Assembly: GCA_045597125.1 (NCBI GenBank) | Contig: JAZODR010000052.1 | Span: 34,947 to 98,946, forward strand | Direction of reading: 5' to 3' | Source: Eubacteriales bacterium | GTDB lineage: Bacteria > Bacillota > Clostridia > Oscillospirales > SIG627 | Length of the DNA: 64,000 nt | Shown: positions 45,379 through 64,000 of the stretch, piece by piece | How positions within the stretch are numbered: position 1 is the stretch's first letter | Layout: every line of letters starts with the position of its first letter | Notes under the pieces: model-generated | What the model was told of the DNA's origin: nothing | Seen by the model: only the letters and a program-made list of their open reading frames with translations | The model's database searches: none | Translations under genes and position numbers: made by a program

Positions 45379-45379
45379 A

Positions 45380-45994: not shown

Positions 45995-46581
45995 TAGAGA
46001 ACTCCTTTTGTAGATGGGATTTCATCTGCGGCAGAAGGATCAACGGATGTGGCTTGTCTGAGAGCTCTGGCAACCGCTTTAAACGATCCTTCGGCGATAT
46101 GATGAGAATTCCTTCCCGCCATCAAACGAATATGAAGCGCCATGGGACAATTTCGCACAAAGGAAACCCAGAACTCCTCTAAAAGCTCCGTATCAAACGT
46201 GCCAATTTTTTTAGCTCGTATGGGAAGATCATAACTCAGACAGCTTCTTCCCGACAAATCAACTGCAGCCAGAATCAGCGCCTCATCCATGGGCAAAATC
46301 ACAGAGCCGTAACGATAGATTCCTCGCTTATCTCCCAAAGCTTTTTCAAAAGCTTTTCCCAAACAAATACCGATATCCTCGGCACTGTGATGATCATCAA
46401 CATTGGTATCACCTTTGCAAGACACAGAAAGATCAAATTTTCCGTGAGAAGCAAAGAGAGTCAACATATGGTCCAAAAAACCGCAGCCCGTATCTATTTC
46501 TGCTTTACCGCTTCCGTCAAGAGAAAGGAAAAGCGAAATATCTGTTTCCTTGGTTTTTCGGTCAATTTTAAATTCTCTCAT
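45994..46581 (-). CDS. hisB: imidazoleglycerol-phosphate dehydratase HisB
   Basis: R.T.ET.I, GF.DHML, D.HH..ED, GRN.HH..E..FKA. Confidence 0.92.
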   Translation of the reverse strand: MREFKIDRKTKETDISLFLSLDGSGKAEIDTGCGFLDHMLTLFASHGKFDLSVSCKGDTNVDDHHSAEDIGICLGKAFEKALGDKRGIYRYGSVILPMDEALILAAVDLSGRSCLSYDLPIRAKKIGTFDTELLEEFWVSFVRNCPMALHIRLMAGRNSHHIAEGSFKAVARALRQATSVDPSAADEIPSTKGVL

Positions 46582-47642: not shown

Positions 47643-48919
47643 TTTTTATCCTCCGAGCGAACAATTGCACTTTTCGCGTGAGCAGTTAAGCCTTCTTTTC
47701 TTGCAAAGTATGCAACATCTTGTGCAACAGAATTCAAAGCCGATTCAGAAAAATAAGTATACTGCATTTTTTTAACAAAATCATCCACGGAGAGAGGGCT
47801 GGAAAAACGCGCCGTTCCGCCGGTTGGTAAAGTATGATTAGGACCTGCAAGATAATCTCCCAAAGCCTCGGGACAATTTCTGCCGAGAAAAACAGAGCCT
47901 GCATGGCGAATCCGGTCCAAATAATCAAAAGGATTATCCACGCAAAGCTCCAGATGCTCCGGAGCAATCTCATTTGAAATCCCAATGGCTTCATGCAAAT
48001 CAGAAACCACAATAATTTTTCCGTTATCATCAATTGACGCTCTTGCAATTTCAGCGCGTTCCAAAAGCGGAATTTGTTTTTCCACTTCTGCCTGCACCTG
48101 TTCTGCCAATTGAATGGAGCTGGTAACCAAAACCGCACTGGCGAGCTTATCATGCTCAGCTTGGGACAATAAATCCGAAGCCAAATGCACGGGATTGCTC
48201 TTCTCATCTGCAATGATCAAAATTTCACTGGGGCCGGCAATCATATCAATGGAAACAACACCGAAAACTTGCTTTTTCGCTTCAGCAACGAAAGCGTTGC
48301 CCGGACCTACAATTTTATCAACTCGCGGAATCGTTTCCGTTCCGTAAGCTAAGGCTGCAATTGCTTGCGCGCCACCGACTTTAAAAATTCGGTCAACACC
48401 TGCAACAGATGCGGCTGCAAGAATAACAGGATTAATTTTTCCATCTTTACCGGGAGGAGTAACCATTACAACTTCCGGACAGCCGGCAATCTTTGCGGGA
48501 ATCGCATTCATTAAAACAGAAGACGGGTAAGAAGCAGTTCCGCCGGGAACGTAAAGACCTGCTCGTTCTACAGGCATAATTTTCTGTCCCATGACAACTC
48601 CGTTGTCACGATTTAAAATAAAACTGTTCCGAACCTGCTTTTCGTGAAACAGACGGATGTTTTCTGCCGCAACTTCCAAAATTCGCAAAAACTGAGGCTC
48701 CGTTTGAGCAAGCGCCGATTCAATTTCTTCACGGGAAACTTCCAGCGAAGAAAGTTTTGCCCCGTCAAATTTTTCACAATAAGAAAACAGAGCAAAATCG
48801 CCGTTTTTACGAACGTTTGCAATGATATCCGCTACAATTGACTCTACATCAAACTTGGGCTGAACACGAGAAAAGATCTCAGCAGAAGAAACCTTGTCAT
48901 TCTTCAATATGCGAATCAT
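47639..48919 (-). CDS. hisD: histidinol dehydrogenase HisD
   Basis: GLYVPGGTA.YPSSVLM, AGPSE, QAEHD, and a C-terminal EGL.AH motif. Confidence 0.92.
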   Translation of the reverse strand: MIRILKNDKVSSAEIFSRVQPKFDVESIVADIIANVRKNGDFALFSYCEKFDGAKLSSLEVSREEIESALAQTEPQFLRILEVAAENIRLFHEKQVRNSFILNRDNGVVMGQKIMPVERAGLYVPGGTASYPSSVLMNAIPAKIAGCPEVVMVTPPGKDGKINPVILAAASVAGVDRIFKVGGAQAIAALAYGTETIPRVDKIVGPGNAFVAEAKKQVFGVVSIDMIAGPSEILIIADEKSNPVHLASDLLSQAEHDKLASAVLVTSSIQLAEQVQAEVEKQIPLLERAEIARASIDDNGKIIVVSDLHEAIGISNEIAPEHLELCVDNPFDYLDRIRHAGSVFLGRNCPEALGDYLAGPNHTLPTGGTARFSSPLSVDDFVKKMQYTYFSESALNSVAQDVAYFARKEGLTAHAKSAIVRSEDKK

Positions 48920-49545
48920 TTTTGCTCCTCCAATTGTTGAGAAAGACTTGTCAAAATCTTTCGGATTGCATCATTTTTAAACTTAAAACCGGATTTATTT
49001 GCAATCAAGCGTGTACTGATAGGAACGATATCTTCAAACACCTCAAGATTGTTTTCTTTTAAAGTCTTTCCCGTTTCCACGATGTCAACAATAACGTCTG
49101 TAAGACCTAAAATCGGTGCAATTTCAATGGAACCGTTTAAATGAATAATATCAATATCTCTACCTTTTTTGAAGTAATAATCTTTTGCAATATTCGAAAA
49201 TTTCGTTGCAACCTTCAATGTTTTGCGAATATCATCTCGAAAATCCACAGGCGCGGCAACTGCCATTTTGCAAACACCGGTTTTCAAATCCAAAAGTTCA
49301 TATACATCCGGATTATATTCCAGAAGAATATCTTTTCCTGCAACTCCCAGATCTGCAGCACCACGTTCAACGTAAATAGCCACATCGGACGGCTTTACCC
49401 AAAAATAGCGGACACCACATTCTTCATTTTCGAAAATCAGCTTGCGGGTATTTTCCATTACCTGAGGACATTCAAAGCCTGCCTTCTCGAACATGGTATA
49501 AACACGCTCTCCCAGTCTTCCTTTCGGGAGAGCAATATTAAGCAT
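48916..49545 (-). CDS. hisG: ATP phosphoribosyltransferase, short form HisG
   Basis: About 209 aa short HisG (LNIALPKGRL, DIV.TG.TL). The ATG at 49545 overlaps the hisZ stop. The TTG at 49554 is an alternative start. Confidence 0.88.
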   Translation of the reverse strand: MLNIALPKGRLGERVYTMFEKAGFECPQVMENTRKLIFENEECGVRYFWVKPSDVAIYVERGAADLGVAGKDILLEYNPDVYELLDLKTGVCKMAVAAPVDFRDDIRKTLKVATKFSNIAKDYYFKKGRDIDIIHLNGSIEIAPILGLTDVIVDIVETGKTLKENNLEVFEDIVPISTRLIANKSGFKFKNDAIRKILTSLSQQLEEQK

Positions 49546-50659
49546 TTCTTTCAAGAAGCTCCACCCCGCTTTCCGAAATTTTCCACAATTCTTTAAACTT
49601 GATTTTAGACGGAATACTTCTCTGCGCCATTACAGACTTTCCCTCTAAAATCAATTTCTTCAATACAAGATCTACCTCAGAGAAAAGAACGTTGGGACTA
49701 TACACCACAACGGAATCAACGTCATATTCCCTCTTTTCAATTAATAAATCTTCCATCAAATCCAGATAAACGGCAAAACCGATAGCCCCGGCATTTCGAT
49801 CCATTTTTTTCATCAAACCGTCATAACGACCGCCGGAAAGAACTGCAGACGGAATGCCATTTATAAATCCTTTGAAAACGATTCCGTTATAATAATCAAC
49901 ACCGTTGACGATGGAAAAATCAATTCGAAGCATCTTTTCAAACCCGCTTTCGCAAAGATTCTTGCAAAGCGATTCAAATGATGCAAGTTCCCCATCGTTT
50001 ACTTTTCCTTCCAGCAATGTTCTGACCTTAGGCAAAACCAGAGCGGGAGAACCGTAAATCTGAACAAGCTCATTCAAAACATCAATGTCTTCGGAATTCA
50101 CTCCCGCAGAAACGCAAATTCGTTCCAAATCATGAGCATTTTTTTCGCCGATTGCGAAAAGAACCTCTTTTTTGATAGAATCTGCGATTCCAAAAGAAGC
50201 GAGAAGCTGGGTTAAGAGACCAAAATCCGATATATCAAGAATAACATCATCGGAAAGCACAGAAAGACTTTTGGCAGCCAGACTCAGCACTTCAAACAAG
50301 GAGTAATCGTCCACCAATCCCATACACTCCACGCCAAGCTGCATAATTTCTTTAAAAGAATTTGTCCCGCTGGAAACGCGATACACATTTTCATTGTAAT
50401 ATACTTTATCCAGCAAACCTTCACTCGATCTGAAATTTTTAATGATTGACAATGTAACATCAGGTTTTAAGGCTAAAAGCTTCCCATTTGTATCCGTAAA
50501 GGTGATAATACTGTCTGAAATCAAAAAATCTTTGTTTCTCACATAAAGATCATATTCCTCGAATTTGCTCATTTTAAATTGAGCATATCCGTACTGTTCA
50601 TATAAACAGCGCAGGCGATTGATCACAAGTTCTTCTTTTCGCAAACTCGTTGTATTCAT
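49538..50659 (-). CDS. hisZ: ATP phosphoribosyltransferase regulatory subunit HisZ
   Basis: 373 aa HisRS-paralogue fold without an anticodon-binding domain, directly upstream of short-form hisG. Confidence 0.8.
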   Translation of the reverse strand: MNTTSLRKEELVINRLRCLYEQYGYAQFKMSKFEEYDLYVRNKDFLISDSIITFTDTNGKLLALKPDVTLSIIKNFRSSEGLLDKVYYNENVYRVSSGTNSFKEIMQLGVECMGLVDDYSLFEVLSLAAKSLSVLSDDVILDISDFGLLTQLLASFGIADSIKKEVLFAIGEKNAHDLERICVSAGVNSEDIDVLNELVQIYGSPALVLPKVRTLLEGKVNDGELASFESLCKNLCESGFEKMLRIDFSIVNGVDYYNGIVFKGFINGIPSAVLSGGRYDGLMKKMDRNAGAIGFAVYLDLMEDLLIEKREYDVDSVVVYSPNVLFSEVDLVLKKLILEGKSVMAQRSIPSKIKFKELWKISESGVELLERNA

Positions 50660-51073: not shown

Positions 51074-53575
51074 TTATTTCAAGCCAAGCTTTTCAACTGC
51101 AGCTTCACGCATTTTATATTTCAAAATTTTGCCGGCTGCATTCATGGGAAATTGTTCCACAAATTCTACGTAGCGCGGAACTTTATGACGTGCCATACTG
51201 GCAGCCACAAAGGCTTTCATTTCCTCTTCGGACATACTCTCACCTTCTTTTAAGATGATACAAGCCATAATTTCTTCACCATACTGCTTATCGGGCACAC
51301 CGATTACCTGAACATCACGAACTTTAGGATTGGTATAAATAAATTCCTCAATTTCCTTAGGATAGATATTTTCTCCGCCTCGGATAATCATATCCTTTAA
51401 GCGTCCGGTAATCAGATAATTCCCTTCGGGTGTGCGACATGCAAGATCCCCGGTATGAAGCCATCCTTCGTCGTCAATGGTGGAAGCCGTGGCACCGGGC
51501 ATTTTGTAATAGCCCTTCATCAAATTATAGCCGCGGGCAACAAATTCACCGTTTACACCATCGGGGCAATCTAGTCCCGTTTCGGGATCTACAATCTTGC
51601 ACTCGACATTTGCAAAGGCGCTGCCCACTGTTTCGGTACGAACCTGCAGAGAATCATAGTAGCTGCTCATCGTACATCCCGGACTTGCTTCGGTTTGACC
51701 GTAAACGGAAACAATCTCTTTCATATTCATAATGTCGGCTGCTTTTTTCATCAAATCGGCAGGACAGTTAGCACCTGCCATAATACCGGTTCGAATATAA
51801 GAAAAATCCGTCTTTGAAAAATCAGGATGCTGCATCATTGCAATGAACATTGTAGGAACACCATTAAAGGTGGTAATATGTTCATTGTGGACACATGCAA
51901 GGGCAGGTTTCGGTGAAAAATACGGCAACGGGAACATCGTAGCGCCGTGGGTCATCGCAGCAGTCATAGAAAGAACCATACCGAAGCAATGGAACATAGG
52001 AACCTGAATCATCATTCGATCGGCCGTGGAAAGATCCATATGGTCTCCGATATATTTACCGTTGTTTACAACGTTGTAATGGGTCAACATAACACCCTTG
52101 GGGAAACCTGTGGTTCCTGAGGTGTACTGCATATTACAAACGTCATTCTTATCTACAGCAGCAGCCATACGGCGTACCTCTTCCAAGGGAACCTGACCGG
52201 CTCTTTCAAGAGACTCTTGCCAGGTCATACAGCCCTTTTGCTTAAATCCGACTGTAATGACATTGCGCAAAAAAGGAAGTCTTCTGGCATGAAGAGATGC
52301 GCCCGCCTTCAAAGACTTAAGTTCAGGACAAAGCTCTGCAATAATCTTTCCGTAATGCGTATCTTTCGCGCCTTCTGTCATAATTAAAGTATGAGTATCA
52401 GACTGGCGAAGCAAATACTCAGCTTCGTGGATTTTATAAGCGGTGTTCACCGTTACAAGAACAGCACCAATCTTTACGGTTGCCCAGAATGCGATAAACC
52501 ATTGAGGAACATTGGATGCCCAAACGGCAACATGAGTTCCCGCTTTTACACCCAATGCAATCAAACTTCTTGCAAAGGTATCCACATCATCACGGAACTG
52601 ACTATAAGTTCTGGTATAATCAAGAGTCGTATATTTAAAAGCATATTGATCCGGAAATTCTTCAACCATCCGATCCAGAACATCAGAAAAAGTAGCATCA
52701 ATCAAAAGATCCTTTTTCCAAACGAATTTACCCGTACGCGCGCGATTATAATACAATGTCTTCCGATTCTGAGAAGGATCACCAAACTGGTTCATAAAAC
52801 TGACAAACTGAGAAAAAATGATCTCCATATCATCAAGCTCGGTACACCAAGAAGGATCCCATACCAATGATACAAATCCGTCATAATTTACGGATCGAAG
52901 GGCAAGGATAATCTCTTTTATTGGAAGATCTCCCTCGCCTGCCAAGCAATATTCAACACCATTTTCAGTTCTTCTGGCATCATTGAACTGAACATGGCGA
53001 ACATAAGCACCAAGGTTTTTAATAACCTCTTCGGGGGTTTCGCCTTTTCCAAAATAAGCTGCTGACATCTGCCATAAAGCGGCAAAATGATCACTTGCAA
53101 ACCGATCTAACAAGTTGCGCAGAACAGAAGTGTCGCTAAAAGGGCCTGTTGTTTCCAAAAGCAACGTAACGGAAGCATCCTTAGCCTTTTCTAAAACTCT
53201 ATTAATGAGTTCGTAAACAGTTTCAACAGCGGCATCGGTGCTCTCTGCATCGTTGGCGCGCAAACGAATATAAGGGATATGGAGATTGGATGCAATACGA
53301 ATGCAGTTCTCAATCTCATCAATTGCTTTGTCCTGTAGGTTAACAGAGCCCACATCAGTAATGGTATCAATACAGGGAATTCTCAGATTCTTCTCATAAA
53401 GCTTGCGAAGAGTGGCCCCGGCGGTATAATCGTGAAATGCACCGTCTTTGTCCGTAAAGAGGCGATTATAAATATTATGAAGTTCGATTCCCTGAAAACG
53501 AAGTTCTTGGGCAATGTTACAAAATTCATCAAAATTGTTATGATGCCAACCCTTTGTAGAAAAGGAAAGTTTCAT
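51074..53575 (-). CDS. fusion protein: xylose-isomerase-like TIM barrel (sugar phosphate isomerase/epimerase family) + AMP-forming acyl-CoA ligase
   Basis: About 833 aa. The N-terminal 270 aa or so have TIM-barrel blocks (GIELH, LLLETTG, HVQFND). The rest has ligase motifs: YTSGTTGFPKGVMLTH, YGQTE, HTGDL, GRLKDMIIRGGENIYP, GKI.K. The GGAGG RBS lies inside the upstream gene's end, and the ATG is 1 nt after its stop. Confidence 0.8.
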   Translation of the reverse strand: MKLSFSTKGWHHNNFDEFCNIAQELRFQGIELHNIYNRLFTDKDGAFHDYTAGATLRKLYEKNLRIPCIDTITDVGSVNLQDKAIDEIENCIRIASNLHIPYIRLRANDAESTDAAVETVYELINRVLEKAKDASVTLLLETTGPFSDTSVLRNLLDRFASDHFAALWQMSAAYFGKGETPEEVIKNLGAYVRHVQFNDARRTENGVEYCLAGEGDLPIKEIILALRSVNYDGFVSLVWDPSWCTELDDMEIIFSQFVSFMNQFGDPSQNRKTLYYNRARTGKFVWKKDLLIDATFSDVLDRMVEEFPDQYAFKYTTLDYTRTYSQFRDDVDTFARSLIALGVKAGTHVAVWASNVPQWFIAFWATVKIGAVLVTVNTAYKIHEAEYLLRQSDTHTLIMTEGAKDTHYGKIIAELCPELKSLKAGASLHARRLPFLRNVITVGFKQKGCMTWQESLERAGQVPLEEVRRMAAAVDKNDVCNMQYTSGTTGFPKGVMLTHYNVVNNGKYIGDHMDLSTADRMMIQVPMFHCFGMVLSMTAAMTHGATMFPLPYFSPKPALACVHNEHITTFNGVPTMFIAMMQHPDFSKTDFSYIRTGIMAGANCPADLMKKAADIMNMKEIVSVYGQTEASPGCTMSSYYDSLQVRTETVGSAFANVECKIVDPETGLDCPDGVNGEFVARGYNLMKGYYKMPGATASTIDDEGWLHTGDLACRTPEGNYLITGRLKDMIIRGGENIYPKEIEEFIYTNPKVRDVQVIGVPDKQYGEEIMACIILKEGESMSEEEMKAFVAASMARHKVPRYVEFVEQFPMNAAGKILKYKMREAAVEKLGLK

Positions 53576-53576
53576 T

Positions 53577-54959
53577 TTATGCCTCCTCGTAAACAATTTT
53601 ATTCACAGCATTCAAGTAAGCACGAATGCTGGCGCCGATGATATCGGTAGATATACCATTGCCCGAATAAAGTTTGCCCCCGGCACGAAGTTTTACAAGA
53701 GCAGAGCCCATTGCTTCTTTGCCTTCTGTAACAGATTGGATCTGAAAATCATCCAATTCATAGTGATGTCCAATGATTTGATCAATCGCACGGAATGCTG
53801 CGTCAACGGGACCGTCACCAATACAAACCCCCTGCAATACGCTTTCTTCTTTTTCCAAAGTAATTTGGGCGCTTGCGGAGATGATATTGCCATTATTTAT
53901 CATATAGTTAACAAGTTTAAAGGTTGCGGGAACCTGCAAAGCTACACTTGCAACAATGGCATCCAATTCCTTAGAACCAACGGATTTTTTAGCGGCTACA
54001 CGAAGAAACTCGTCAAAAACCCGCTTTTGATCTTCTTCAGAAAGATCGTAACCGAGTTTTGCAACTACGGCAATCACAGTAGCTTGATCGTCGTTCTGGC
54101 TTAAATAGGAGCCAACTTCGTCACAGGTTGCTACAGTCATTGCGGAACGCTCATTTTTAGCATTGTTTGCAATCCAATTGATTTGCTTTAAAATGCGGAA
54201 CAATTCAGTCTGATTGATTTTCGCAAAATAGGAATAACGGTTTCCGCAGTTCTTTAGAATAGAAGCAATGTCTGCCAAAGGCGCATTGATACCGATGACA
54301 TCCGCTTTAATGCAAGATGCACCGCTACGGAGCGCCAAAACAGACGCCGCGCAAGCCAAGCCGTTTGCATTTTCGCAGCGAACACTAACAGGAACAGAAA
54401 GGCCCTCGGAATAAGTCTGAACAAAAGCGGCAAAATCATCGGGAAGCATTTCAGCAGCGCTATCACACAAAGAAATCGAGGTTGCACCGGACTCTACTGC
54501 AATCTGAATAGCCTTTTTTAAAAAGTCACATTCTGCACGGGTAGCATCCACAGCACAAAATTCAACATCTTCCACAGAAGCTTTTGCCATACGAATTGCT
54601 TCGCTGATCCATAAAAGCATAGGGTCAGCCTTCTTTTTTGCAATATACTCCATTCCAATCGGCGAAACAGGAACCTCAATGCGAATTCGGCCGTTTTTCA
54701 CGGCAGACAAGGCGGAAATCGCATCAGTAACGCTATCAATATTACTGCCGGCAGCTACAGAAATAATACTATTCTTCACAAAGGAAGCGGCAGTTCGCAC
54801 GAAAAGACAGTCCGCCTTGGTATTGGAAATCTCGGGAAGTTCAATAATATCAACGCAAAGTTTATCCAGTTGACGCGCAATTTCAAGCTTTTCCTTAAAG
54901 CCAAAAACACCCTCTTCTGTACAAAGTGTTGTATCAGCAATCATAATCTGTTTCATCAT
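53577..54959 (-). CDS. 2-isopropylmalate synthase (LeuA) paralogue with degenerate catalytic site and an intact LeuA regulatory domain
   Basis: 460 aa. The DTTLRDGEQ block reads DTTLCTEEG and HxH(N/D)D.G reads RCENANG. The C-terminal GDGPVDAAFRAI and GNGISTDIIGASIRAYLNAVN match the LeuA allosteric/dimerisation domain. Confidence 0.7.
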   Translation of the reverse strand: MMKQIMIADTTLCTEEGVFGFKEKLEIARQLDKLCVDIIELPEISNTKADCLFVRTAASFVKNSIISVAAGSNIDSVTDAISALSAVKNGRIRIEVPVSPIGMEYIAKKKADPMLLWISEAIRMAKASVEDVEFCAVDATRAECDFLKKAIQIAVESGATSISLCDSAAEMLPDDFAAFVQTYSEGLSVPVSVRCENANGLACAASVLALRSGASCIKADVIGINAPLADIASILKNCGNRYSYFAKINQTELFRILKQINWIANNAKNERSAMTVATCDEVGSYLSQNDDQATVIAVVAKLGYDLSEEDQKRVFDEFLRVAAKKSVGSKELDAIVASVALQVPATFKLVNYMINNGNIISASAQITLEKEESVLQGVCIGDGPVDAAFRAIDQIIGHHYELDDFQIQSVTEGKEAMGSALVKLRAGGKLYSGNGISTDIIGASIRAYLNAVNKIVYEEA

Positions 54960-54988: not shown

Positions 54989-55240
54989 GAAAAAAATCCC
55001 TGAGGTAAAAACCTCAGGGACGAAAAAATCCGCGGTACCACCCTGTTTGCCGTCAAGCGGCCTTCTCTACGAGTTCTAACAAACCCTTTGCCATGATAAC
55101 GGGGCAAGCCGTAACCGCTTACTATCATTCAGCGACTCTGCTCCGGAATGAGAATCTAATCCTCGCATTTTGCTGCCTTGCACCAACCGACAGTTCTCTG
55201 TAAAATGCCTTGAGAAAAAGACGATTTCCTTCATCGCATT
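54989..55240 (-). promoter_or_regulatory. T-box riboswitch leader, specifier CUC (tRNA-Leu)
   Basis: Minus strand: a K-turn TGCGATGAA...GGAGCA, a GGTGCAA distal loop, the specifier context ATT-CTC-A-TTCC, the T-box AACAGGGTGGTACCGCGG, and the terminator tccctgaggt-tttt-acctcaggga plus a T-run at 54989-55020. Confidence 0.85.
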
Positions 55241-55256
55241 TAAAAAACTTAAATGG

Positions 55257-55301: not shown

Positions 55302-55838
55302 TTATTTGTATTCTGCACCAAGTGTCATTGCCTTCAGGTTTACATCAATCATATCGGCACGCTTTGCAGAAATAACTTTGGTAAGAGTCTTCTTAACCTG
55401 CTCCTCATCAAACTCTCCGAGGACCTTGAAAATCTTACCCATCAAAATCATATTTGCAAGAGTCGCAAAGCCATTTTCACCTGCAAGTCTGGTTGCGGGT
55501 ACAGGGAAAACCTGAACGTCGGTGCGCTTCACTTCTCTCTCTACCAAGGAAGAGTCGTAGAAGATCATACCACCGGGAACAACAGAATCCTCAAACTTAT
55601 CCAAAGAAGGAAGATTCATTGCTACTAAAATATCAGGCTTGGAAACAATGGGCGAGCCAACGGGCTCATCGCTGATGATGACGCTGCAGCTTGCAGTACC
55701 GCCACGCATTTCAGGACCATAGGAAGGAAGCCAGCTTACTTGCTTATCCTCAATCAATCCTTTGTATGCAAGCATTTTACCGGTAAACAGAATACCCTGT
55801 CCGCCAAAACCGGAAAGCAAAAACTGTTTTGCGCTCAT
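55302..55838 (-). CDS. 2-oxoacid:ferredoxin oxidoreductase gamma subunit
   Basis: 178 aa. GFGGQG...G..LA motif; start overlaps the beta stop (ATGA). Confidence 0.88.
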
Positions 55839-56590
55839 TTGTTTTCCTCCTTTGCACTACGATCCTTATACACACCAAGAGGATAATAAGGAATCATCTT
55901 CTCGTCAATCCATTTCAGAGCATTTTGAGGAGTCATACCCCAGTTGGTGGGACAAGAAGAAAGAACCTCTACCAAAGAGAAGCCTTTTCCATCAATCTGA
56001 TTCTGAAAAGCCTTTTTAATTGCCTTCTTGGCATTCTTAATATTCTTAACACTGTTAACGGTAACGCGTTCCAAATATTCGGGACCATCCAACTCAGAGA
56101 GCATCTCGCATACACGAATGGGGAAACCGCAAGCATTGGTATCTCTGCCATAGGGAGAGGTCTGTGTGACCTGTCCGGGAAGAGAGGTAGGTGCCATCTG
56201 ACCACCGGTCATACCGTAGATAGCATTATTAATAAAGATAATGGTGATGTTCTCATTTCTTGCGGCAGAATGTACGGTTTCAGCCATACCAATAGAAGCC
56301 AGATCTCCATCACCCTGATAAGTAAATACAATGTGATTTTCAGGATCTGCGCGCTTTACACCGGTAGCTACTGCAGGAGCTCTACCGTGAGCAGCCTCAA
56401 TCATATCACAGTTAAAATAGTCATAAGCCATAACGGAGCAACCAACGGGGGCAACACCAATGGTCTTACCTTCAATACCAAGCTCGTCAATTACTTCGGC
56501 AACCAAGCGGTGAACAATACCGTGGGTACAGCCGGGACAATAATGCATCGGCACTTCAGCCATTGCATGGGGTCTATCAAATACTACCAT
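55835..56590 (-). CDS. 2-oxoacid:ferredoxin oxidoreductase beta (TPP-binding) subunit
   Basis: 251 aa. CPGC.H, and GDGD....G TPP/Mg motif. Confidence 0.88.
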   Translation of the reverse strand: MVVFDRPHAMAEVPMHYCPGCTHGIVHRLVAEVIDELGIEGKTIGVAPVGCSVMAYDYFNCDMIEAAHGRAPAVATGVKRADPENHIVFTYQGDGDLASIGMAETVHSAARNENITIIFINNAIYGMTGGQMAPTSLPGQVTQTSPYGRDTNACGFPIRVCEMLSELDGPEYLERVTVNSVKNIKNAKKAIKKAFQNQIDGKGFSLVEVLSSCPTNWGMTPQNALKWIDEKMIPYYPLGVYKDRSAKEENK

Positions 56591-56600: not shown

Positions 56601-57653
56601 TCACTTCTGCGCACTTCTGATGGCTTCCAAAACCTGCTCGGGGGAAGGAATCATACCGCCAACACGGTTGCAAAGGCTTACGGGAACTTTGCACTCGGTT
56701 GCAAGTCTTACATCTTCAATCATCTGACCCATGGAAAGCTCAACAGAAATAATGGATTTTACTTTTTCAGCAGCTTTTGCAAAGGGAGCCTTGGGGAAAG
56801 GCCACAAAGTAATGGGACGGATCATACCAACGCGAATACCCTCTTTGCGTGCTTCGTTGATGGCATTTTTCGCTACACGAGCGGCAATACCGAATGCTGC
56901 AATACAAATCTCTGCATCATCCATCAAATACTCTTCGTACATGGTTTCATTCTCTTCAATGATGCGATAGCGGTCATAGCGAGAAAAATTAAATTTTTCC
57001 AATGCCTCGGGAGCAAGAAACAAAGAGTTTACGATATTGTGCTCTCTCTGCATTTTGGTGCCGGTGGTAGCCCAAGGCTTTGCAGGAGTTTCCTTCACAT
57101 CAAAATCAAGGGAAACAGGCTCCATCATCTGACCCATAGTACCATCAGCAAGGATCATTGTGGTCATACGATAGGTATCGGCAAGCTCAAAGCCCTTCAC
57201 AGTAAGCTCTGCCATTTCCTGAACGGAACTGGGAGCAAGAACGATCATATGGAAGTCACCGTGTCCTGCACCACGAGTTGCCTGGAAATAGTCAGACTGG
57301 CTAGGCTGAATTCCACCAAGGCCGGGACCGCCACGCTGTACGTTTACAACCAATGCAGGAAGATCTGCACCGGCAAGATAAGAAAGTCCCTCGCCCTTCA
57401 AAGAAATTCCGGGGCTGGAAGAGGAAGTCATAACACGCTTACCGGTAGAAGCAACGCCGTAAACCATATTAATCGCGGCAATTTCACTTTCTGCCTGAAG
57501 GAAGGTACCGCCGATTTTGGGCATTTTCTTTGCCATATATGCGGCAACTTCAGTCTGGGGAGTAATAGGATAACCAAAATAGTGACGACAACCGGCAAGA
57601 ATTGCAGCTTCTGCAATTGCTTCGTTGCCCTTCATCAAAATCTTTTCCGACAT
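56601..57653 (-). CDS. 2-oxoacid:ferredoxin oxidoreductase alpha subunit (VorB/KorA-like)
   Basis: About 350 aa. MKGNEA.AEAA..AG....FGYPITPQ.E motif. The ATG at 57653 has an RBS; the GTG at 57662 is an alternative start. Confidence 0.88.
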   Translation of the reverse strand: MSEKILMKGNEAIAEAAILAGCRHYFGYPITPQTEVAAYMAKKMPKIGGTFLQAESEIAAINMVYGVASTGKRVMTSSSSPGISLKGEGLSYLAGADLPALVVNVQRGGPGLGGIQPSQSDYFQATRGAGHGDFHMIVLAPSSVQEMAELTVKGFELADTYRMTTMILADGTMGQMMEPVSLDFDVKETPAKPWATTGTKMQREHNIVNSLFLAPEALEKFNFSRYDRYRIIEENETMYEEYLMDDAEICIAAFGIAARVAKNAINEARKEGIRVGMIRPITLWPFPKAPFAKAAEKVKSIISVELSMGQMIEDVRLATECKVPVSLCNRVGGMIPSPEQVLEAIRSAQK

Positions 57654-57658
57654 CTTCT

Positions 57659-57865
57659 TCACCTCTCAACCTTGATTACGCAATCGGGGCACATCTGCGC
57701 ACAAAATGCACATCCTACGCAATCCTCCTGCTTTGTAATTTCAGCAGGATGGTGACCTTTCTTATTGATCTTATCAGGTGCAAGTCTGATCAGCTTTTTG
57801 GGACAAGCATCAACGCAAAGACCGCAACCCTTACAAAAATCAGTATTGAATGTAAGTTTTGCCAT
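57659..57865 (-). CDS. 4Fe-4S dicluster ferredoxin (oxidoreductase delta subunit)
   Basis: 68 aa with CKGCGLCVDACP and CVGCAFCAQMCP motifs. Confidence 0.88.
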   Translation of the reverse strand: MAKLTFNTDFCKGCGLCVDACPKKLIRLAPDKINKKGHHPAEITKQEDCVGCAFCAQMCPDCVIKVER

Positions 57866-57887: not shown

Positions 57888-58547
57888 TCAATAATACTTT
57901 TTTTGCAGCTTCAGCGGATATAGATCCGAAATCTTTCCCCGCAAAGTTTCATAAAGTTCTTCCCGCACGGAAGTCATAACCACAGGCAAGTGGCAAAGCT
58001 TTGCAAAACTTTTTGCTTTTTCAACTGTGGAAAGCACATCCTCGGGAGTAGTTTCTTCTCCTAAATTGGAGTTATTTACAATTCCTGTAAATGAAATACC
58101 TGCAGCCTGTTCCATTTCCTTCATTACCTCCAGCATCGACTGATTGTCTCTGGTAAGAGGTCTAAAAAAATTCACCACCAGCAGCATTTCATAATTGTTC
58201 TCTTCCACAATGGAAGGTGCCAATCTGCCAAGCGCCAAAGCGCCTCTGTCATCTCCGCCAATATCCAAAACAAAATGACTTTCTACATCATCCATCACCG
58301 CATACATTCCCTGAGGCAATGCGGGAACATCTACATTGGTATTGGCAAATTCCGAGGAAATCAAACGAATCCCTGCCTTTTGAAAATCCTCAAGGCTGTC
58401 CTTGGTACGAAAATACGGATTCACAATATCCAAATCACAAACGGATACCTTCTTCCCTTCCCGTTTCAATGAGAACGCAAGATTCACGGCAATATTGGTT
58501 TTACCGCTGCCGTAGTGACCCGCTAAAATGGTAATTCTTTTATCCAT
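57888..58547 (-). CDS. P-loop (SIMIBI-like) ATPase of unknown function
   Basis: About 219 aa. Walker A GHYGSGKTN, then DLD and DIGGDD acidic motifs. The ATG overlaps the ilvE stop (ATGGATAA). Confidence 0.6.
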   Translation of the reverse strand: MDKRITILAGHYGSGKTNIAVNLAFSLKREGKKVSVCDLDIVNPYFRTKDSLEDFQKAGIRLISSEFANTNVDVPALPQGMYAVMDDVESHFVLDIGGDDRGALALGRLAPSIVEENNYEMLLVVNFFRPLTRDNQSMLEVMKEMEQAAGISFTGIVNNSNLGEETTPEDVLSTVEKAKSFAKLCHLPVVMTSVREELYETLRGKISDLYPLKLQKKYY

Positions 58548-59619
58548 TGCAGACCTTGACGGTCCAACCGTTTGCATCCTCGATTTTTCCCCACTGAATA
58601 CCGGTCAGATTATCATAAAGCTTCTGCGTAAGCTGGCCAATCTGATTATCACAAACCACGTACTCCTTGCCCTGATAAAAGAGCTGACCAATGGGAGAAA
58701 CAACGGCAGCAGTGCCTGTTCCCCAAGCTTCCTCGAGTTTGCCGTTTGCGGCAGCCTCAAAGAGCTCGTCCACAGAAATGAGTCTTTCTTCAACGGTGTA
58801 GCCCCAAGAACGGAGAAGTTCTACGCAGCTTTTTCTGGTAATACCGGGAAGGACAGAACCGGTCAGTTCGGGAGTGACGATTTTGCCATCAATCTTGAAC
58901 ATAACGTTCATTGCGCCGACTTCTTCAATGTACTTTCTTTCAACACCGTCCAGCCAAAGAACCTGTGTATAACCGTTCTTTTCAGCCCGTTCACCTGCCC
59001 GAAGAGATGCAGCATAGTTACCGCCGCACTTTGCGTAGCCGGTACCGCCTCTTACCGCACGGACGTCCTGAGACTCAATAGCAATCTTAACGGGATTGAT
59101 ACCCTCAGCGTAGTAAGCGCCAACAGGGGAGCAAATCACAGCTAGGGTAGCATTTTTAACGGCGTGAACGCCAAGGTGAGGGTCATTGCCGTACATAAAA
59201 GGACGAATATAAAGGCTGGTACCTTCGGAATGAGGAACCCAATCCTTCTCAAGCTCCACCAAGGTCTTCAAAATATCAAGAGTGCCTTCTTCATCCACTT
59301 GGGGAAGGCAAAGGCGCTCAGCGCTATTGTTCAATCTTTTGATGTTCTCCATCGGACGGAACATAGAAATTTCACCGTTTGCTTTGCGATATGCCTTCAT
59401 ACCTTCAAAAATTTCAACACCGTAATGAAAAACGGTTGATGCAGGATGAAGCGGAATGGGACCGAAGGGAACGATTCTGGCATCATGCCAACCTTTCTCC
59501 TGATTGTAATCCATTAAGAACATATGGTCGGTAAAAATTTTACCGAATCCGAGCTTAGATTCATCAACAGGCTTCTCCTTGGGAGAAGTGGTTTTGGTGA
59601 TAGAAATGGAATATTTCAT
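58540..59619 (-). CDS. ilvE: branched-chain amino acid aminotransferase (class IV)
   Basis: About 359 aa. FGK.FTDHM, E.GMKAY, R.G.G..K.GGNYA, E..GAMN.F, GITR motifs. Start set at MKYSIS (AAGGAG RBS). Confidence 0.88.
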   Translation of the reverse strand: MKYSISITKTTSPKEKPVDESKLGFGKIFTDHMFLMDYNQEKGWHDARIVPFGPIPLHPASTVFHYGVEIFEGMKAYRKANGEISMFRPMENIKRLNNSAERLCLPQVDEEGTLDILKTLVELEKDWVPHSEGTSLYIRPFMYGNDPHLGVHAVKNATLAVICSPVGAYYAEGINPVKIAIESQDVRAVRGGTGYAKCGGNYAASLRAGERAEKNGYTQVLWLDGVERKYIEEVGAMNVMFKIDGKIVTPELTGSVLPGITRKSCVELLRSWGYTVEERLISVDELFEAAANGKLEEAWGTGTAAVVSPIGQLFYQGKEYVVCDNQIGQLTQKLYDNLTGIQWGKIEDANGWTVKVCNG

Positions 59620-59632: not shown

Positions 59633-61921
59633 TTAAAGCTTATTTCTTTGAATTTTACCGCTGACTGTCTTAGGCAATTCATCGCGGAAGACAACCAGTC
59701 TTGGATATTTGTAAGGGGCGGTGTGCTCCTTCACATAATTCTGAATTTCCTTTTTCAGTTCATCGGTACCTTCCGTCCCCTTGGTTAAAACGATGCTCGC
59801 TTTAACAATCTGCCCTCTGACCTCATCAGGAGCAGCGGATACACCGCATTCCAAAACATAAGGAAGTTCCATAATAACGCTTTCAATCTCAAAAGGACCG
59901 ATACGATAACCAGAGGATTTTATTACGTCATCCGCCCTGCCTACGTACCAGAAGAAGCCGTCTTCATCACGCCAAGCAAGGTCGCCGGTATGGTAATAAC
60001 CATCTCGAATCGCCTCATTCGTCTTTTCTTCATCGTTGTAGTATCCAACAAAGAGACCGCAAGGAACGCCGTTTTTCAGATTGATAACAACCTCACCGGG
60101 TTCACCGTTTGCAACGGCATTTCCATCAGCATCAACGAGTTCAACGGCATAAATCGGAGCAGGCTTACCCATAGAGCCAATCTTGTGCGAAGCGCCGATC
60201 ATATTGCCGACAATCATAGTACTTTCCGTCTGACCAAAACCCTCTAAAATCTGAAGTCCGGTGGCCTTTTCAAATTGACGATAAACCTCAGGATTGAGCG
60301 CTTCTCCAGCCGTAGTCATATGACGAACGGAAGACAAATCATATTGTGAAATATCCTGCTTAATCATCATACGAAGCATGGTGGGAGGAGCGCAAAATGT
60401 GGTAATTTGATGTTTGGCAAACATCGGTAGGATCTGGGAAGCGTCAAAACGATCAAAATCATACACGAAAATTGCTGCCTCGCAAAGCCACTGACCATAA
60501 AGTTTACCCCACATAGATTTTGCCCAACCGGTATCGGAAATCGTAAAGTGTAATCCATCGGGATCAACGCAATGCCAATATTTGGCAGTATGGAAATGTC
60601 CAAGAGGATACTTGTGATTATGAGCCGCGATTTTGGGGTAACCGGAAGTACCTGATGTAAAGAACATCAAAAGAAGATCATCGCCGCAGGGAGAATCCTC
60701 AGTACGATTAAAATGGGAACTGTAAAGGGTATATTCTTCGTCAAAAGAACGCCAACCTTCCCTTTTTCCGTTTACAATCAATTTTACGGAAAGTTCGGGA
60801 TGGTTTGCCGCTGCACGGTCAACATGTTCTGCAATATCACCGTCTGCGGTGCAAACAATGCCTTTAACCCCCGCAGCCCCAAAACGATAATCCAAATCGT
60901 GTTCAAGAAGTTGATTCGGAGCAGGAATTGCAACAGCACCGAGCTTATTTAACCCAAGCATTGCAAACCAAAACTGATAATGGCGCTTCAAGATCAGCAT
61001 AACCTTGTCGCCTTTTTTGATGCCAAGAGATTTAAAATAATTTGCACACTGGTTAGAAGCCTTCTTAATATCTTTAAAGGTAAATCTTCTCTCTGTAAGA
61101 TCCTTGGCGATATGAAGCATTGCCAATTTATTAGGCTCTCGCGCGGCAAGCTCATCAATTAAATCAAATGCGAAATTGAATTTCTCCGTATTTTTAAACT
61201 GAATAGAAAGCGGTGTTCCCTTTTCATTTTCCACAACGTCAATGAAATTCTGATAAACACGAGGTTTGGTATCCTTCTTGCCAACTATGCCGGAAGCAAT
61301 TGCCTTAGGCGTAGTAAGCTCGGGAATCGGCTCACCGGTAGGATTTAAAACAATGGCATAGAATACACAATCCTCGCCTTGAACGGCAATCATACCATGG
61401 GGAGCGGAACTATCATAATAAATGCTGTCACCCGGACCGAGAACTTCTCTGTGCTCTCCGATTTGTACCATCAAATGACCTTCAATGACGATATCACATT
61501 CCTGCCCGGAGTGGGTCGTCAATTCAATATCACGATTCTGCGCCGCTTCATCATAACGAATCTTAACATACAAAGGCTCTGCAATACGGTTACGAAAAGC
61601 GTATGCCATATTGTAGTAGGTCATACCGTGTGCATCGGTAATTTCCTGCCCTTCTCCACTTCTGGTCAAGGTATAGGACTTCAAATTCGGACTATGGCCT
61701 TCTATAATATCCGTTACATTAACGTTCAATGCTAAAGAACAACGATAAATAAAGGCAAAATTCAAATCGCTTCTTCCGTTTTCGCAATCCAGATATTCTT
61801 CCACCGAAACATCGGTTTTTATCGCCATCTCTTCAGGGGTAAGCCCTTGAATCTGACGAAGCTCGCGAATACGCGCAGCCATTTCCTGAATTTTAAATTC
61901 AAGTCCTGTAATCTTATTCAT
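59633..61921 (-). CDS. fusion protein: XRE-type HTH + cupin domain + AMP-forming (medium/short-chain type) acyl-CoA synthetase
   Basis: About 762 aa. N-terminal IRELRQIQGLTPEEMA...VS.YE.G. HTH, a cupin core (HSGQE.D.V.EG....IG.......GDS.Y..S...H). The ligase motifs are FTSGTSGYPK, GFGQTE, HTGD, GRADDVIKSSGYRIGPFEIES and SGKIQR. Start set at MNKITG (GGAG RBS). Confidence 0.85.
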   Translation of the reverse strand: MNKITGLEFKIQEMAARIRELRQIQGLTPEEMAIKTDVSVEEYLDCENGRSDLNFAFIYRCSLALNVNVTDIIEGHSPNLKSYTLTRSGEGQEITDAHGMTYYNMAYAFRNRIAEPLYVKIRYDEAAQNRDIELTTHSGQECDIVIEGHLMVQIGEHREVLGPGDSIYYDSSAPHGMIAVQGEDCVFYAIVLNPTGEPIPELTTPKAIASGIVGKKDTKPRVYQNFIDVVENEKGTPLSIQFKNTEKFNFAFDLIDELAAREPNKLAMLHIAKDLTERRFTFKDIKKASNQCANYFKSLGIKKGDKVMLILKRHYQFWFAMLGLNKLGAVAIPAPNQLLEHDLDYRFGAAGVKGIVCTADGDIAEHVDRAAANHPELSVKLIVNGKREGWRSFDEEYTLYSSHFNRTEDSPCGDDLLLMFFTSGTSGYPKIAAHNHKYPLGHFHTAKYWHCVDPDGLHFTISDTGWAKSMWGKLYGQWLCEAAIFVYDFDRFDASQILPMFAKHQITTFCAPPTMLRMMIKQDISQYDLSSVRHMTTAGEALNPEVYRQFEKATGLQILEGFGQTESTMIVGNMIGASHKIGSMGKPAPIYAVELVDADGNAVANGEPGEVVINLKNGVPCGLFVGYYNDEEKTNEAIRDGYYHTGDLAWRDEDGFFWYVGRADDVIKSSGYRIGPFEIESVIMELPYVLECGVSAAPDEVRGQIVKASIVLTKGTEGTDELKKEIQNYVKEHTAPYKYPRLVVFRDELPKTVSGKIQRNKL

Positions 61922-61940
61922 ACAAACTCCATATCCGGGA

Positions 61941-62205
61941 CAAAAAAGCACTCGTCCCAAAAGTCTTTACTTTGAGACGAGCGCATAATTTGTAACACCC
62001 GCGGTACCACTCAAATTGCAGATAAACTGCCACTCAGGATCCAACAACCCGTATGCATTTACGCAGCAATCACGGAGAGGTTCTACTCCCTTTCGGTTTC
62101 TTCCTCTCGGCTCGGAAGCTACCAACAAAGCATCAATCCTTAGTGACTCGCACCGTCCGTCACTTCTCTGAAAGGTCTTTGCATCGCCCTCTTCTTCAAC
62201 GCCTT
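61941..62205 (-). promoter_or_regulatory. T-box riboswitch leader, probable specifier GUA (tRNA-Val); alternative register GGU
   Basis: Minus strand: a K-turn GGCGTTGAA...CGAGCC, an AG bay CAGAGAAG, a distal loop GGTGCGA, the specifier context TTG-GTA-G-CTTC, the T-box TTTGAGTGGTACCGCGGG, and the terminator ctcgtctcaaagt-aaag-acttttgggacgag plus a T-run at 61941-61981. Confidence 0.8.
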
Positions 62206-62217
62206 TAAAGATAATTT

Positions 62218-62246
62218 ATTATAACACTTTCATACAATTATGTCAA
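62218..62246 (-). promoter_or_regulatory. sigma-A-like promoter of the Val T-box leader
   Basis: Minus strand: TTGACA, 17 nt spacer, TATAAT. Confidence 0.65.
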
Positions 62247-62269
62247 GATAAAAGAAGAATTTTTCCTCA

Positions 62270-64000
62270 TCAAAGCTTATTTCGTTGAATTTTGCCGCTG
62301 ATGGTCTTAGGAAGTTCGTCGCGGAATTCAATTACACGGGGATATTTATAGGGAGCAGTATGCGCTTTTACATAGCTTTGAATTTGTTTTTTCAATTCTT
62401 CATTGCCTTCTGTCCCCTTAGTCAAAACGATACTTGCCTTAACAACCTGACCTCTCACCTCATCGGGCACTGCGGAAACACCACATTCCACAACGTAAGG
62501 CAATTCCATAATTACACTTTCAATCTCGAAGGGACCGATACGATAACCTGAAGATTTAATAACGTCATCCACACGGCTAACATACCAGAAAAAGCCATCT
62601 TCATCCCGCCACGCAGTGTCACCCGTATGATACAGACCGTCATACCAAGCATCATTGGTCTTTTCTGCATCACGATAATATTCCTTGAATAAACCGCAAG
62701 GAATCGTTTCTTCCGTGTGAATAACGATTTCGCCAACCTCGCCGGCAGGAAGACTCTTTCCATCGGGGTCAACAATATCAATATCGAATTGTGGAGAAGC
62801 TTTACCCATAGAACCGATTTTCGGAACAGTTCCCGCAAGGTTTGCAATTACAAGAGTCGTTTCCGTCTGTCCGAATCCCTCCATAATCTCAAGTCCGGTA
62901 GCTTCCTTAAATTTCTTAAATACCTCGGGATTCAGCGCTTCTCCTGCAGTGGTCATATGATGAATCGAAGAAAGATCATACTTGGAAAGGTCACCGCGGA
63001 TCAGCATTCTAAGCATGGTGGGAGGAGCGCAGAAGGTGGTAATATTGTATTTTGCAAACATAGGCAATATATCATTTTCATCGAACCGATCAAAGTCGTA
63101 CACAAAAACGGCACCTTCGCAAAGCCATTGTCCGTAAAGCTTACCCCAAAGAGATTTACCCCATCCCGTATCAGAAATGGTTAGATGCAAACCGTCCCGT
63201 TCGCAGCAATGCCAATATTTAGCGGTAACGAAGTGCCCAAGCGCATAAGTATGCTTGTGCGCTGCCATTTTAGGATTTCCGGTTGTACCGGAAGTAAAGA
63301 ACATCAAAGCCGTCTCATCTCCAGCAGAAGCATCCTCGGGACGAACAAATTTTCTGCTGAAAAGTTTGAATTCTTCATTAAAATCGTGCCAATTCTCTTT
63401 TTTGCCTCCAACAAGAATCAAATTCTTTACAGAAGGACAATTCTTCGCAGCAGCCTCGGCAATATCAGCAACGTCCCCATCGGCAGTACATACGATGGCA
63501 GAAACTTCAGCAGCGTTGAAACGGTATTCGAAATCGTGCTGCTTAAGCTGATTGGTAGCGGGAATTGCAACTGCACCAATCTTATGAAGTGCAACCATTG
63601 CAAACCAGAACTGATAATGACGCTTCAAAACCAGCATAACCTTATCACCTTTTTTGATACCCAAAGAGGTAAAATAGTTTGCGCACTGGTTTGAATACTG
63701 CTTCATATCCTTAAAGGTAAATCGACGCTCGGTTTTATTTACATCCAAGTGAAGCATAGCAAGTTTCTCAGGGTATTGTTCGGCAATGCCGTCAACAATA
63801 TCAAAACCGAAATTGAATTTGTCTGTATTAACAAATTCAATGCTTTCCAATGCCCCTTCGGCATTTTCCTCGGTTTTAATAAACTTTTCGCAAATCAAAG
63901 ACTGAGAACTTTTAGCAGTCACAAGGCTATTGCGAACAACTTCTTCTTTTGTTTCTTCACCCGGCAAAACCACCGCACAGAACACACAGTCTTCCCCATC
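62270..64000 (-). CDS. paralogous cupin + AMP-forming acyl-CoA synthetase (5' end outside the window)
   Basis: Collinear with 59633..61921 and highly similar in the C-terminal half. The reading frame stays open to the window edge (..DGEDCVFCAVVL, compare GEDCVFYAIVL of the cupin domain), so the track start at 63985 is not the true start. Confidence 0.85.
   Translation of the reverse strand, partial: DGEDCVFCAVVLPGEETKEEVVRNSLVTAKSSQSLICEKFIKTEENAEGALESIEFVNTDKFNFGFDIVDGIAEQYPEKLAMLHLDVNKTERRFTFKDMKQYSNQCANYFTSLGIKKGDKVMLVLKRHYQFWFAMVALHKIGAVAIPATNQLKQHDFEYRFNAAEVSAIVCTADGDVADIAEAAAKNCPSVKNLILVGGKKENWHDFNEEFKLFSRKFVRPEDASAGDETALMFFTSGTTGNPKMAAHKHTYALGHFVTAKYWHCCERDGLHLTISDTGWGKSLWGKLYGQWLCEGAVFVYDFDRFDENDILPMFAKYNITTFCAPPTMLRMLIRGDLSKYDLSSIHHMTTAGEALNPEVFKKFKEATGLEIMEGFGQTETTLVIANLAGTVPKIGSMGKASPQFDIDIVDPDGKSLPAGEVGEIVIHTEETIPCGLFKEYYRDAEKTNDAWYDGLYHTGDTAWRDEDGFFWYVSRVDDVIKSSGYRIGPFEIESVIMELPYVVECGVSAVPDEVRGQVVKASIVLTKGTEGNEELKKQIQSYVKAHTAPYKYPRVIEFRDELPKTISGKIQRNKL

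Follow-up and report, generated by a model that had tools for sequence, protein, structure and literature searches.

Two adjacent genes at the end of a 64,000-nucleotide stretch of DNA from an Eubacteriales bacterium (contig JAZODR010000052.1, positions 34,947 to 98,946; the window in what follows), here designated A and B, encode paralogous AMP-forming acyl-coenzyme A (acyl-CoA) synthetases that carry an N-terminal module composed of an XRE-type helix-turn-helix (HTH)-like domain and a cupin barrel, in the case of B as read from its orthologues, and in the related loci each paralogue stands behind a T-box leader of its own, with a valine specifier for A and an isoleucine specifier for B. The explanation favored here, to which a probability of about 0.5 may be given, is that both enzymes are T-box-gated ligases for isoleucine and valine salvage, in which the tethered module would act at the protein level as a metal- or ligand-sensing partner domain. 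According to this proposal, A and B would catalyze the entry step, from short α-branched acids to the acyl-CoA, which would be converted to the 2-oxo acid through reductive carboxylation by the ferredoxin oxidoreductase encoded downstream, and then to the amino acid through transamination by the downstream class IV aminotransferase, so that branched-chain volatile fatty acids would be salvaged into amino acids. Each ligase would be switched on separately, B by uncharged tRNA-Ile and A by uncharged tRNA-Val, with the T-boxes supplying the transcriptional control. The His-Glu-His site of the cupin would hold a metal together with a small-molecule ligand, such as an amino acid or a 2-oxo acid of the pathway, and the ligand-bound cupin would modulate or organize the tethered ligase, the HTH-like bundle being a structural or oligomerization element, as in HppE, that would not read DNA.

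Tandem paralogues with separate T-box leaders

An earlier note on this DNA described the product of gene A as an XRE-type HTH followed by a cupin and a full AMP-forming synthetase, and this organization is confirmed by the Pfam profiles, at their curated cut-offs (29.9 bits for AMP-binding, 24.5 for AMP-binding_C, 23.0 for HTH_3, and 30.2 for HTH_19), together with the predicted fold. AMP-binding (residues 257–615, 212.3 bits), AMP-binding_C (residues 678–756, 74.4 bits), and Cupin_2 (residues 131–190, 44.2 bits) are all detected, HTH_3 (residues 18–71) scores 23.0 bits, exactly its cut-off, and HTH_19 stays under its own with 23.7 bits. The borderline HTH_3 score is backed by the structure predicted by AlphaFold for residues 1–202 (100 homologues), with a predicted local distance difference test score (pLDDT) of 86, which shows a five-helix bundle (residues 6–25, 29–35, 40–47, 55–64, and 69–74, with pLDDT values of 84–96) followed by a β-barrel, and whose best match in the Protein Data Bank (PDB) is 1Y9Q, an HTH_3 plus cupin protein (Foldseek E-value of 4.9e-15); the HTH is thus real as a fold. 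The start of the gene was also given correctly in that note, since the longer reading frame, which opens with a TTG at 61960, would begin within the terminator hairpin of the T-box, and the ATG has a GGAG 7 nucleotides upstream. Between module and ligase lies a tether with a mean identity of 0.59 within A and of 0.26 between A and B; in the full-length AlphaFold model, pLDDT falls below 50 at residues 192–214, and the stand-alone ligases of related organisms begin at the equivalent of residue 223.

The reading frame of gene B is open up to the window edge, where its first residues, DGEDCVFCAVVL, lie inside the cupin, and it includes AMP-binding (230.8 bits) and AMP-binding_C (76.9 bits). The missing N-terminus was read from the relative contig L081, in which the identity to the window genes is 97% for A and 93% for B: its B orthologue (7387–9651, 754 residues) contains HTH_19, Cupin_2, and both ligase domains, and lies behind a T-box leader of its own. 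In a second orthologue, from L001 (7384–9648, 86% identical), HTH_19 is above its cut-off with 36.7 bits and is again followed by Cupin_2 and AMP-binding, and the module is present in all 62 complete upstream copies, which bears out the expectation that B carries the same N-terminal module as A. The two paralogues are 66% identical over 581 residues, and the last 110 residues, previously regarded as nearly identical, are indeed highly similar, at 87.3%, which falls short of that description. Third codon positions in these 110 codons are identical in 54% of the cases, not above the rest of the gene, indicating that the C-terminal likeness is due to constraint; gene conversion was rejected as its cause, the synonymous sites being as diverged there as elsewhere.

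The leader of gene A is made of the same parts as the T-box riboswitches of amino-acid genes, that is, Stem I with a specifier loop, the conserved T-box sequence, and a terminator, which aligns with the terminator region of related leaders. Its score is under the RF00230 gathering score of 93 bits, and the orthologous leaders of L003 are above it, with 99.2 and 93.5 bits. In the related loci, the T-box 12-mer occurs upstream of A in 76 of 78 cases and upstream of B in 57 of 58, as had been anticipated when each paralogue was suggested to have its own T-box; both leaders are present in L081 (Rfam matches at 7103–7340 and 9713–9951). The specifier of the A leader is a valine codon in 74/78 (GUA in 71, the synonymous GUC in 3) and is the sole invariant triplet at that place, and that of the B leader, likewise the sole invariant one, is AUC, for isoleucine, in 55/58. 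The promoter of A is likewise maintained, with the TTGACA and TRTG-TATAAT layout kept in 68 related A promoters. Further downstream, a third leader carries a leucine specifier, which is CUC or CUG in 20 of the 29 Leu leaders parsed in relatives, so that the specifiers AUC, GUA, and CUC along the cluster point to gating by isoleucine, valine, and leucine in turn. The T-boxes of amino-acid genes control tRNA synthetases, biosynthetic genes, or transporters, whereas those found here gate fatty-acid-activating ligases, and the alignment of three specificities in one cluster is a further difference.

The scan for relatives was based on one genome per species, and the architecture, for which a search across genomes had been proposed, is encoded as full-length proteins in at least 597 species-level genomes, mostly metagenome-assembled genomes (MAGs) of Oscillospiraceae, Acutalibacteraceae, and Ruminococcus from ruminant and human guts; the detailed counts given here refer to the best 80 of these loci. 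The tandem pair is found in 68 of the 80, and A alone, truly without B, in seven. The identity of the module within A (0.73–0.77) indicates purifying selection, and no truncated or frameshifted module was found among 142 complete genes; a word-based homologue search with the N-terminal module gave mainly fragments at contig ends. A tandem pair of fused genes from one MAG has a second member (P0281, L090 4493–6769) that has lost the P-loop of A3, the Asp of A7, and the catalytic Lys of A10 and keeps the HTH and the His-Glu-His triad of the cupin; by its sequence, it is a likely pseudoenzyme that has retained the module.

The module also exists outside the fusion. A full HMMER scan detected 2508 relatives, many of them free-standing at about 185–195 residues, and each of the seven stand-alone relatives that were looked up is immediately followed by a free-standing ligase belonging to this clade; about 4–40 nucleotides separate the two genes of a split pair, which overlap in L095 and L096. 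The split form is also present in the cultured Hydrogenoanaerobacterium saccharovorans and Ligaoa zhengdingensis. Two of the split pairs (L082 and L084) are preceded by Ile T-boxes. The free-standing HTH-cupin protein of a distant clade found in digesters, peat, and sediments (L097–L176) is 36% identical to the module of the window and has the ligase directly downstream in 72 of 73 loci, and a T-box was found in none of the 80 loci; the split forms are conserved down to 31–37% identity. Taken from gene order and homology, the pairing of HTH-cupin and ligase is ancient and the module is an obligate partner of this ligase clade, and the simplest reading is that, in the Oscillospiraceae lineage, the partner became fused through the poorly conserved tether, which is predicted with low confidence.

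Ligase family and predicted substrates

The core motifs of adenylate-forming enzymes are intact in A, namely FTSGTSGYPK (A3), EGFGQTES (A5), YHTGD (A7), GRADDVIKSSGYRIG (A8), and PKTVSGKIQR (A10), and the B orthologue has equivalents of all of them. The best solved relative of the ligase domain is MacS of Methanosarcina acetivorans (PDB 3ETC; 615 bits, E-value of 2e-183), which prefers 2-methylbutyrate (PMC10455477), and the best NCBIfam match is MbcS (NF047394), against which A scores 445.4 bits and the B orthologue 442.3 bits, values so far under the equivalog cut-off of 850 that both are relatives of MbcS and not equivalogs. The MbcS enzyme activates 2-methylbutyrate and isobutyrate, hardly isovalerate, and not acetate (PMC10026030). 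The EGFGQTE of A aligns to GFGQTE of MacS, with a Gly at the position of the pocket Trp of Acs, a replacement described as a feature of medium-chain enzymes (PMC10455477), and W471 of A aligns to the alternate pocket Trp259 of MacS (chain residue 282). The pocket Gly makes acetate specificity unlikely, and on this ground acetate was rejected as the substrate of A and B, including the case, raised in the earlier note, that both enzymes share it.

A comparison of 80 A with 62 B sequences shows only six ligase positions at which each group has its own fixed residue, and four of them adjoin elements of the pocket: A467G and M470L, which flank W471, and M569L and G572A, which come after motif A5. 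The motif around this Trp is WGK in B, in the split Ile-type ligases, and in MacS, and WAK in the A of the window and the 80 A-type sequences, as well as in the distant split ligase of L096. Because B would answer uncharged tRNA-Ile, it probably activates 2-methylbutyrate, as the ligase of the isoleucine arm, and because A would answer uncharged tRNA-Val, it probably activates isobutyrate, as that of the valine arm; the T-box specifiers, the homology, and the pocket differences support this split of substrates, which is a coherent one. The earlier suggestion that the duplication reflects different acids, isobutyrate versus 2-methylbutyrate, is therefore well supported by the Val and Ile specifiers, the kinship to MacS and MbcS, and the A467G and M470L differences.

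The resemblance to both characterized enzymes has its limits. MacS aligns over the whole ligase domain and has in common with the window enzymes the pocket Gly and the Trp259/W471 pair, as well as, in the case of B, the WGK motif; A differs from it beside the pocket Trp (WAK and M470), and the solved chain of MacS has only about 50 residues ahead of the aligned region, too short for a module of about 195 residues. MbcS from Staphylococcus aureus takes the two acids predicted for A and B but feeds fatty-acid synthesis, whereas A and B are proposed to serve amino-acid synthesis.

The HTH-cupin module and its possible role

The residues H137, E141, and H175 of the cupin are invariant across the fused and stand-alone relatives. 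After 1Y9Q, the best structural matches of the module in Foldseek are HppE, Psf4, HEPD, and MPnS, with E-values of 1e-13 to 1e-14 (down to 4.5e-14) for HppE and of 1e-10 to 1e-11 for the best Psf4 chains. The module shares with these proteins the two-domain fold and the His-X3-Glu...His triad, which in HppE corresponds to the iron ligands His138, Glu142, and His180 (PMC7916636). They carry out O2- or peroxide-dependent phosphonate chemistry and are unattached to a ligase, unlike the module, and the identity to HppE is only 17% (TM-score of about 0.46–0.49), which denotes resemblance and not membership. The core of the cupin is the same in A and B, and the A- or B-specific positions of the module are at residues 78–117, so that the sensed ligand may be common to both arms.

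The HTH-like domain is acidic in every A and B sequence, the net charge averaging -5.8 and -6.0, respectively, and lying between -10 and -3; in the distant split clade, where the domain is likewise variable, it is -5.2. The 11 positions homologous to those that we take to be the DNA contacts of 434-type HTHs (the N-terminus of helix 2; positions 1–3, 6, and 7 of helix 3; and the following loop) show the greatest variability of the whole protein, between its 73rd and 100th percentile of entropy, with 1.99, 2.45, and 2.19 bits in A, B, and the distant clade, respectively, versus 0.54, 0.90, and 1.14 bits at the remaining HTH positions; the difference in A and B has a permutation p < 5e-5. Basic residues account for 7–9% of the contact positions over the three clades, with 8–9% in A and B, and acidic ones for 21% in A and B, and the invariant or conserved surface of the domain is on helices 1, 4, and 5. 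The conserved features expected of a recognition helix, whose lack the earlier note had named as grounds for refutation, are thus largely missing.

A search for gapped palindromes (arms of 4–6 nucleotides, spacers of 0–16) in the upstream regions of A, B, and the stand-alone genes detected none common to the 68 A and 59 B promoters beyond the promoter elements and an UP-like A/T tract, and none shared by the 76 stand-alone upstream regions of the distant clade. Inverted repeats were not above shuffled controls in the 127 A and B promoters (p of 0.49 and 0.34), and a repeat search in five split operons returned only the terminators of T-boxes. Three kinds of candidate operators were rejected: ACAA-N10-TTGT in the A promoters, which corresponds to the -35 box and the extended -10 (TRTG); a T5-6 N A5-6 tract ahead of B, which reads as an UP-like element; and two palindromes, ATTGTACAAT (L092 and L093) and CGTATC-N12-GATACG (L095 and L096), which are confined to single lineages and not significant. 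The tract (T5-6 N1-3 A5-6, such as TTTTTTCAAAAAA) is located just ahead of the -35 of B, as in L001 at about 6990–7090, and with 4-nucleotide arms at any one spacing it occurs in about half of the B promoters (up to 28/59). The first palindrome, at L092 3885–3915 and L093 75–105, has an adjacent ATTGTA and belongs to T-box-less split operons, and at L095 1375–1410 the arrangement GTATC GTATC ... GATAC is also upstream of a T-box-less split operon; such lineage-specific palindromes, which have no statistical support, are the best candidates should the module bind DNA somewhere.

DNA binding by the module is disfavored by these sequence data, and the coupling of adenylation to DNA binding after the model of BirA, suggested in the earlier note, is unsupported in view of the acidic HTH, the variable contact positions, and the lack of an operator in the regions searched. 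BirA, NadR, and PutA, the precedents for a trigger enzyme, likewise unite an enzyme and an N-terminal domain of DNA-binding type on one polypeptide, but BirA has a winged helix, a defined operator in the bio promoter, and its adenylate as corepressor, whereas here the fold is of the XRE type and no operator was detected. The XRE-cupin factors, such as PuuR and the Pseudomonas proteins ErfA, PsdR, and PauR, have the same N-terminal XRE HTH plus cupin and are encoded beside a metabolic gene (PMC7901475); they are free-standing dimers of about 180–200 residues that bind palindromes and repress their neighbors, unlike the module, which is fused to a ligase of about 520 residues plus the tether, or coupled to the same enzyme family, and has an acidic HTH with variable contact positions.

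A functional repressor of the XRE-cupin type joined to its target enzyme, which would bind DNA and sense, through the cupin or the ligase, the acid, the acyl-AMP, the acyl-CoA, or the amino acid, adding an input for available substrate to the T-box signal of a needed amino acid, appears unlikely on balance, although several observations can be read in its favor. The XRE fold is real, with Pfam HTH matches; the best sequence match of the HTH is the DNA-binding DdrO; the characterized XRE-cupin proteins repress neighboring metabolic genes and sense a pathway precursor (PMC7901475); and the FadD1 ligase of P. aeruginosa has been reported to act as a regulator (PMC12754631). The purifying selection on the module, its retention by the catalytically dead paralogue, the need of the T-box-less clades for another regulator, and the single-locus palindromes would also fit such an enzyme. 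Nevertheless, in each of the three clades the HTH is acidic and its contact positions are free of constraint and have few basic residues, the 127 and 76 upstream regions share no operator, inverted repeats are no commoner than in shuffled sequence, the two recurrent motifs are explained as promoter and UP elements, and a regulator made in a 1:1 ratio with an abundant enzyme would be an unusual design. A three-in-one sensor, enzyme, and regulator, in which the T-box would report demand and the HTH-cupin-ligase the supply of its branched acid, through ligand- or adenylate-dependent binding of DNA or another nucleic acid, the two forming an AND gate, is rather doubtful. For an HppE-like metalloenzyme, catalyzing an additional step on the acid, acyl-CoA, or 2-oxo acid, such as the epimerization of 2-methylbutyryl, the invariant triad at the spacing of HppE, the structural matches to HppE and Psf4, and the HTH-like domain of HppE-type enzymes, which is not a DNA reader, could be adduced; this role is nonetheless improbable, as the pathway needs no further enzyme, A keeps the module although isobutyrate is achiral, the O2 or H2O2 used by the HppE family is implausible in strict gut anaerobes, the similarity to HppE is low, and the top structural match, 1Y9Q, is a putative regulator. 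The unconstrained contact positions and the poorly conserved linker might even suggest a decaying relic of a regulator gene fused by chance and devoid of function, but the strong conservation of the cupin and of helices 1, 4, and 5, which spans at least 597 species-level genomes, both paralogues, and the split forms, together with the intact state of the module in all of the complete genes, effectively excludes it.

The favored explanation, of salvage ligases with a sensing partner at the protein level, is itself weakened by several points. The full-length AlphaFold model (pLDDT of 65.5, predicted template modeling score of 0.55) is too poor for contacts between module and ligase; the substrate assignments rest on the T-box specifiers and homology; and the test of contact variability was run without a proven XRE-cupin regulator as positive control, and in any protein the exposed positions of a helix are more variable than the buried ones. 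DdrO is itself slightly acidic, a regulator as the first gene of an operon is a normal layout too, and the dead ligase motifs and intact module of P0281 hint at a function independent of catalysis. The stand-alone XRE-cupin proteins studied beside metabolic genes are local repressors (PMC7901475). It is the absence of a predicted interface between module and ligase, the variability test without a control, the existence of XRE-cupin repressors, and the dead-ligase paralogue that keep the confidence at about 0.5.

The surrounding cluster and its significance

The features of the window that concern the two genes and their cluster are collected in Table 1. The conserved order of the cluster is B, A, the ATPase, the four subunits of the oxidoreductase, the aminotransferase, the LeuA-like gene, and the fusion of TIM barrel and ligase, and almost every one of the 80 loci has the genes for ATPase, oxidoreductase, and aminotransferase behind the ligases; the aminotransferase comes after the oxidoreductase in most relatives and directly after A in the window. 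The CbiA/ParA/Mrp-like ATPase is always located between the ligases and the delta subunit of the oxidoreductase, and in an unrelated contig a like ATPase (L095 707–1378) adjoins a delta-like ferredoxin next to a split pair of HTH-cupin and ligase; the ATPase may serve the oxidoreductase as an iron-sulfur maturation or carrier factor. The LeuA-like gene and the TIM-barrel/ligase fusion are kept as a pair downstream of the cluster in many relatives and may represent a leucine arm, via isovalerate or 2-oxoisovalerate. Other features of the window are ordinary: a large bacterial signal recognition particle RNA (22057–22320, minus strand, 168 bits), a long-variable-arm tRNA (3609–3697, plus strand), and the full operon for histidine biosynthesis, with a hisZ-like gene among its members (43910–50659, minus strand).

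Table 1. Positions in the window of the two ligase genes, their domains and leaders, and the genes that follow them
Feature	Position	Strand	Details
Gene B	62270-64000	minus	C-terminal 576 codons; cut by the window edge within the cupin
Promoter of gene A	62218-62246	minus	-35 TTGACA 62241-62246, 17-nucleotide spacer, -10 TATAAT 62218-62223
T-box leader of gene A	61970-62208	minus	Rfam RF00230, 80.3 bits, E-value 6.9e-18
Specifier GUA (Val)	62120-62122	minus	Stem I specifier loop, from the Rfam alignment
T-box sequence	62000-62011	minus	AGTGGTACCGCG, conserved 12-mer
Intrinsic terminator of the T-box	61942-61984	minus	Hairpin, then TTTTTT
Gene A	59633-61921	minus	762 residues from ATG; HTH, cupin, linker, acyl-CoA synthetase
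XRE-type five-helix HTH-like domain	61694-61906	minus	Residues 6-76 of A
Cupin barrel	61346-61582	minus	Residues 114-192 of A; Cupin_2
Cupin triad	H137 61511-61513; E141 61499-61501; H175 61397-61399	minus	
Variable tether	61202-61336	minus	Residues 196-240 of A; joins module to ligase
AMP-forming acyl-CoA synthetase domain	59636-61201	minus	Residues 241-762 of A; MacS/MbcS type
Class IV aminotransferase	58540-59619	minus	
P-loop CbiA/ParA-like ATPase	57888-58577	minus	
2-Oxoacid:ferredoxin oxidoreductase, delta	57659-57865	minus	
2-Oxoacid:ferredoxin oxidoreductase, alpha	56601-57662	minus	
2-Oxoacid:ferredoxin oxidoreductase, beta	55835-56590	minus	
2-Oxoacid:ferredoxin oxidoreductase, gamma	55302-55838	minus	
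Third T-box leader	55013-55243	minus	109.9 bits; specifier CUC (Leu)
Divergent LeuA-like gene	53577-54959	minus	268 bits versus isopropylmalate synthase cut-off of 532; behind the Leu T-box
Xylose-isomerase-like TIM barrel fused to AMP-binding ligase	51074-53596	minus	840 residues

Many fiber-degrading Clostridia of the rumen and gut need isobutyrate, 2-methylbutyrate, and isovalerate, and the conversion of these acids to valine, isoleucine, and leucine by reductive carboxylation was established biochemically decades ago. A search of the full-text literature returned no paper on a fusion of HTH-cupin and ligase, none on the control of branched-acid ligases by T-boxes, and none that describes this cluster at the level of its genes. 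Enzyme, riboswitch, and pathway chemistry each belong to a known kind; what is new is the HTH-cupin partner, always present, and the way in which isoleucine, valine, and leucine specifiers label a cluster for branched-acid salvage. Database labels for these proteins vary among 'AMP-binding protein', 'cupin domain-containing protein', and 'transcriptional regulator', an inconsistency that should be taken as a warning for annotation. The cluster offers a compact and testable set of genes, in which every acid has its own ligase and the T-box specifier in front of that ligase names the amino acid that it would serve, and the module marks a large clade of ligases that always have an HTH-cupin partner, either fused or split. 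If the module binds DNA, the protein would be a new trigger enzyme, and if supply and demand are in fact integrated by a three-in-one protein, a new class of trigger enzymes would extend across hundreds of gut and rumen Clostridia. If, as favored here, the module is a sensor at the protein level, it would represent a new mode of control for adenylate-forming enzymes and the second case, after the HppE-type enzymes, of an XRE-like fold diverted from DNA.

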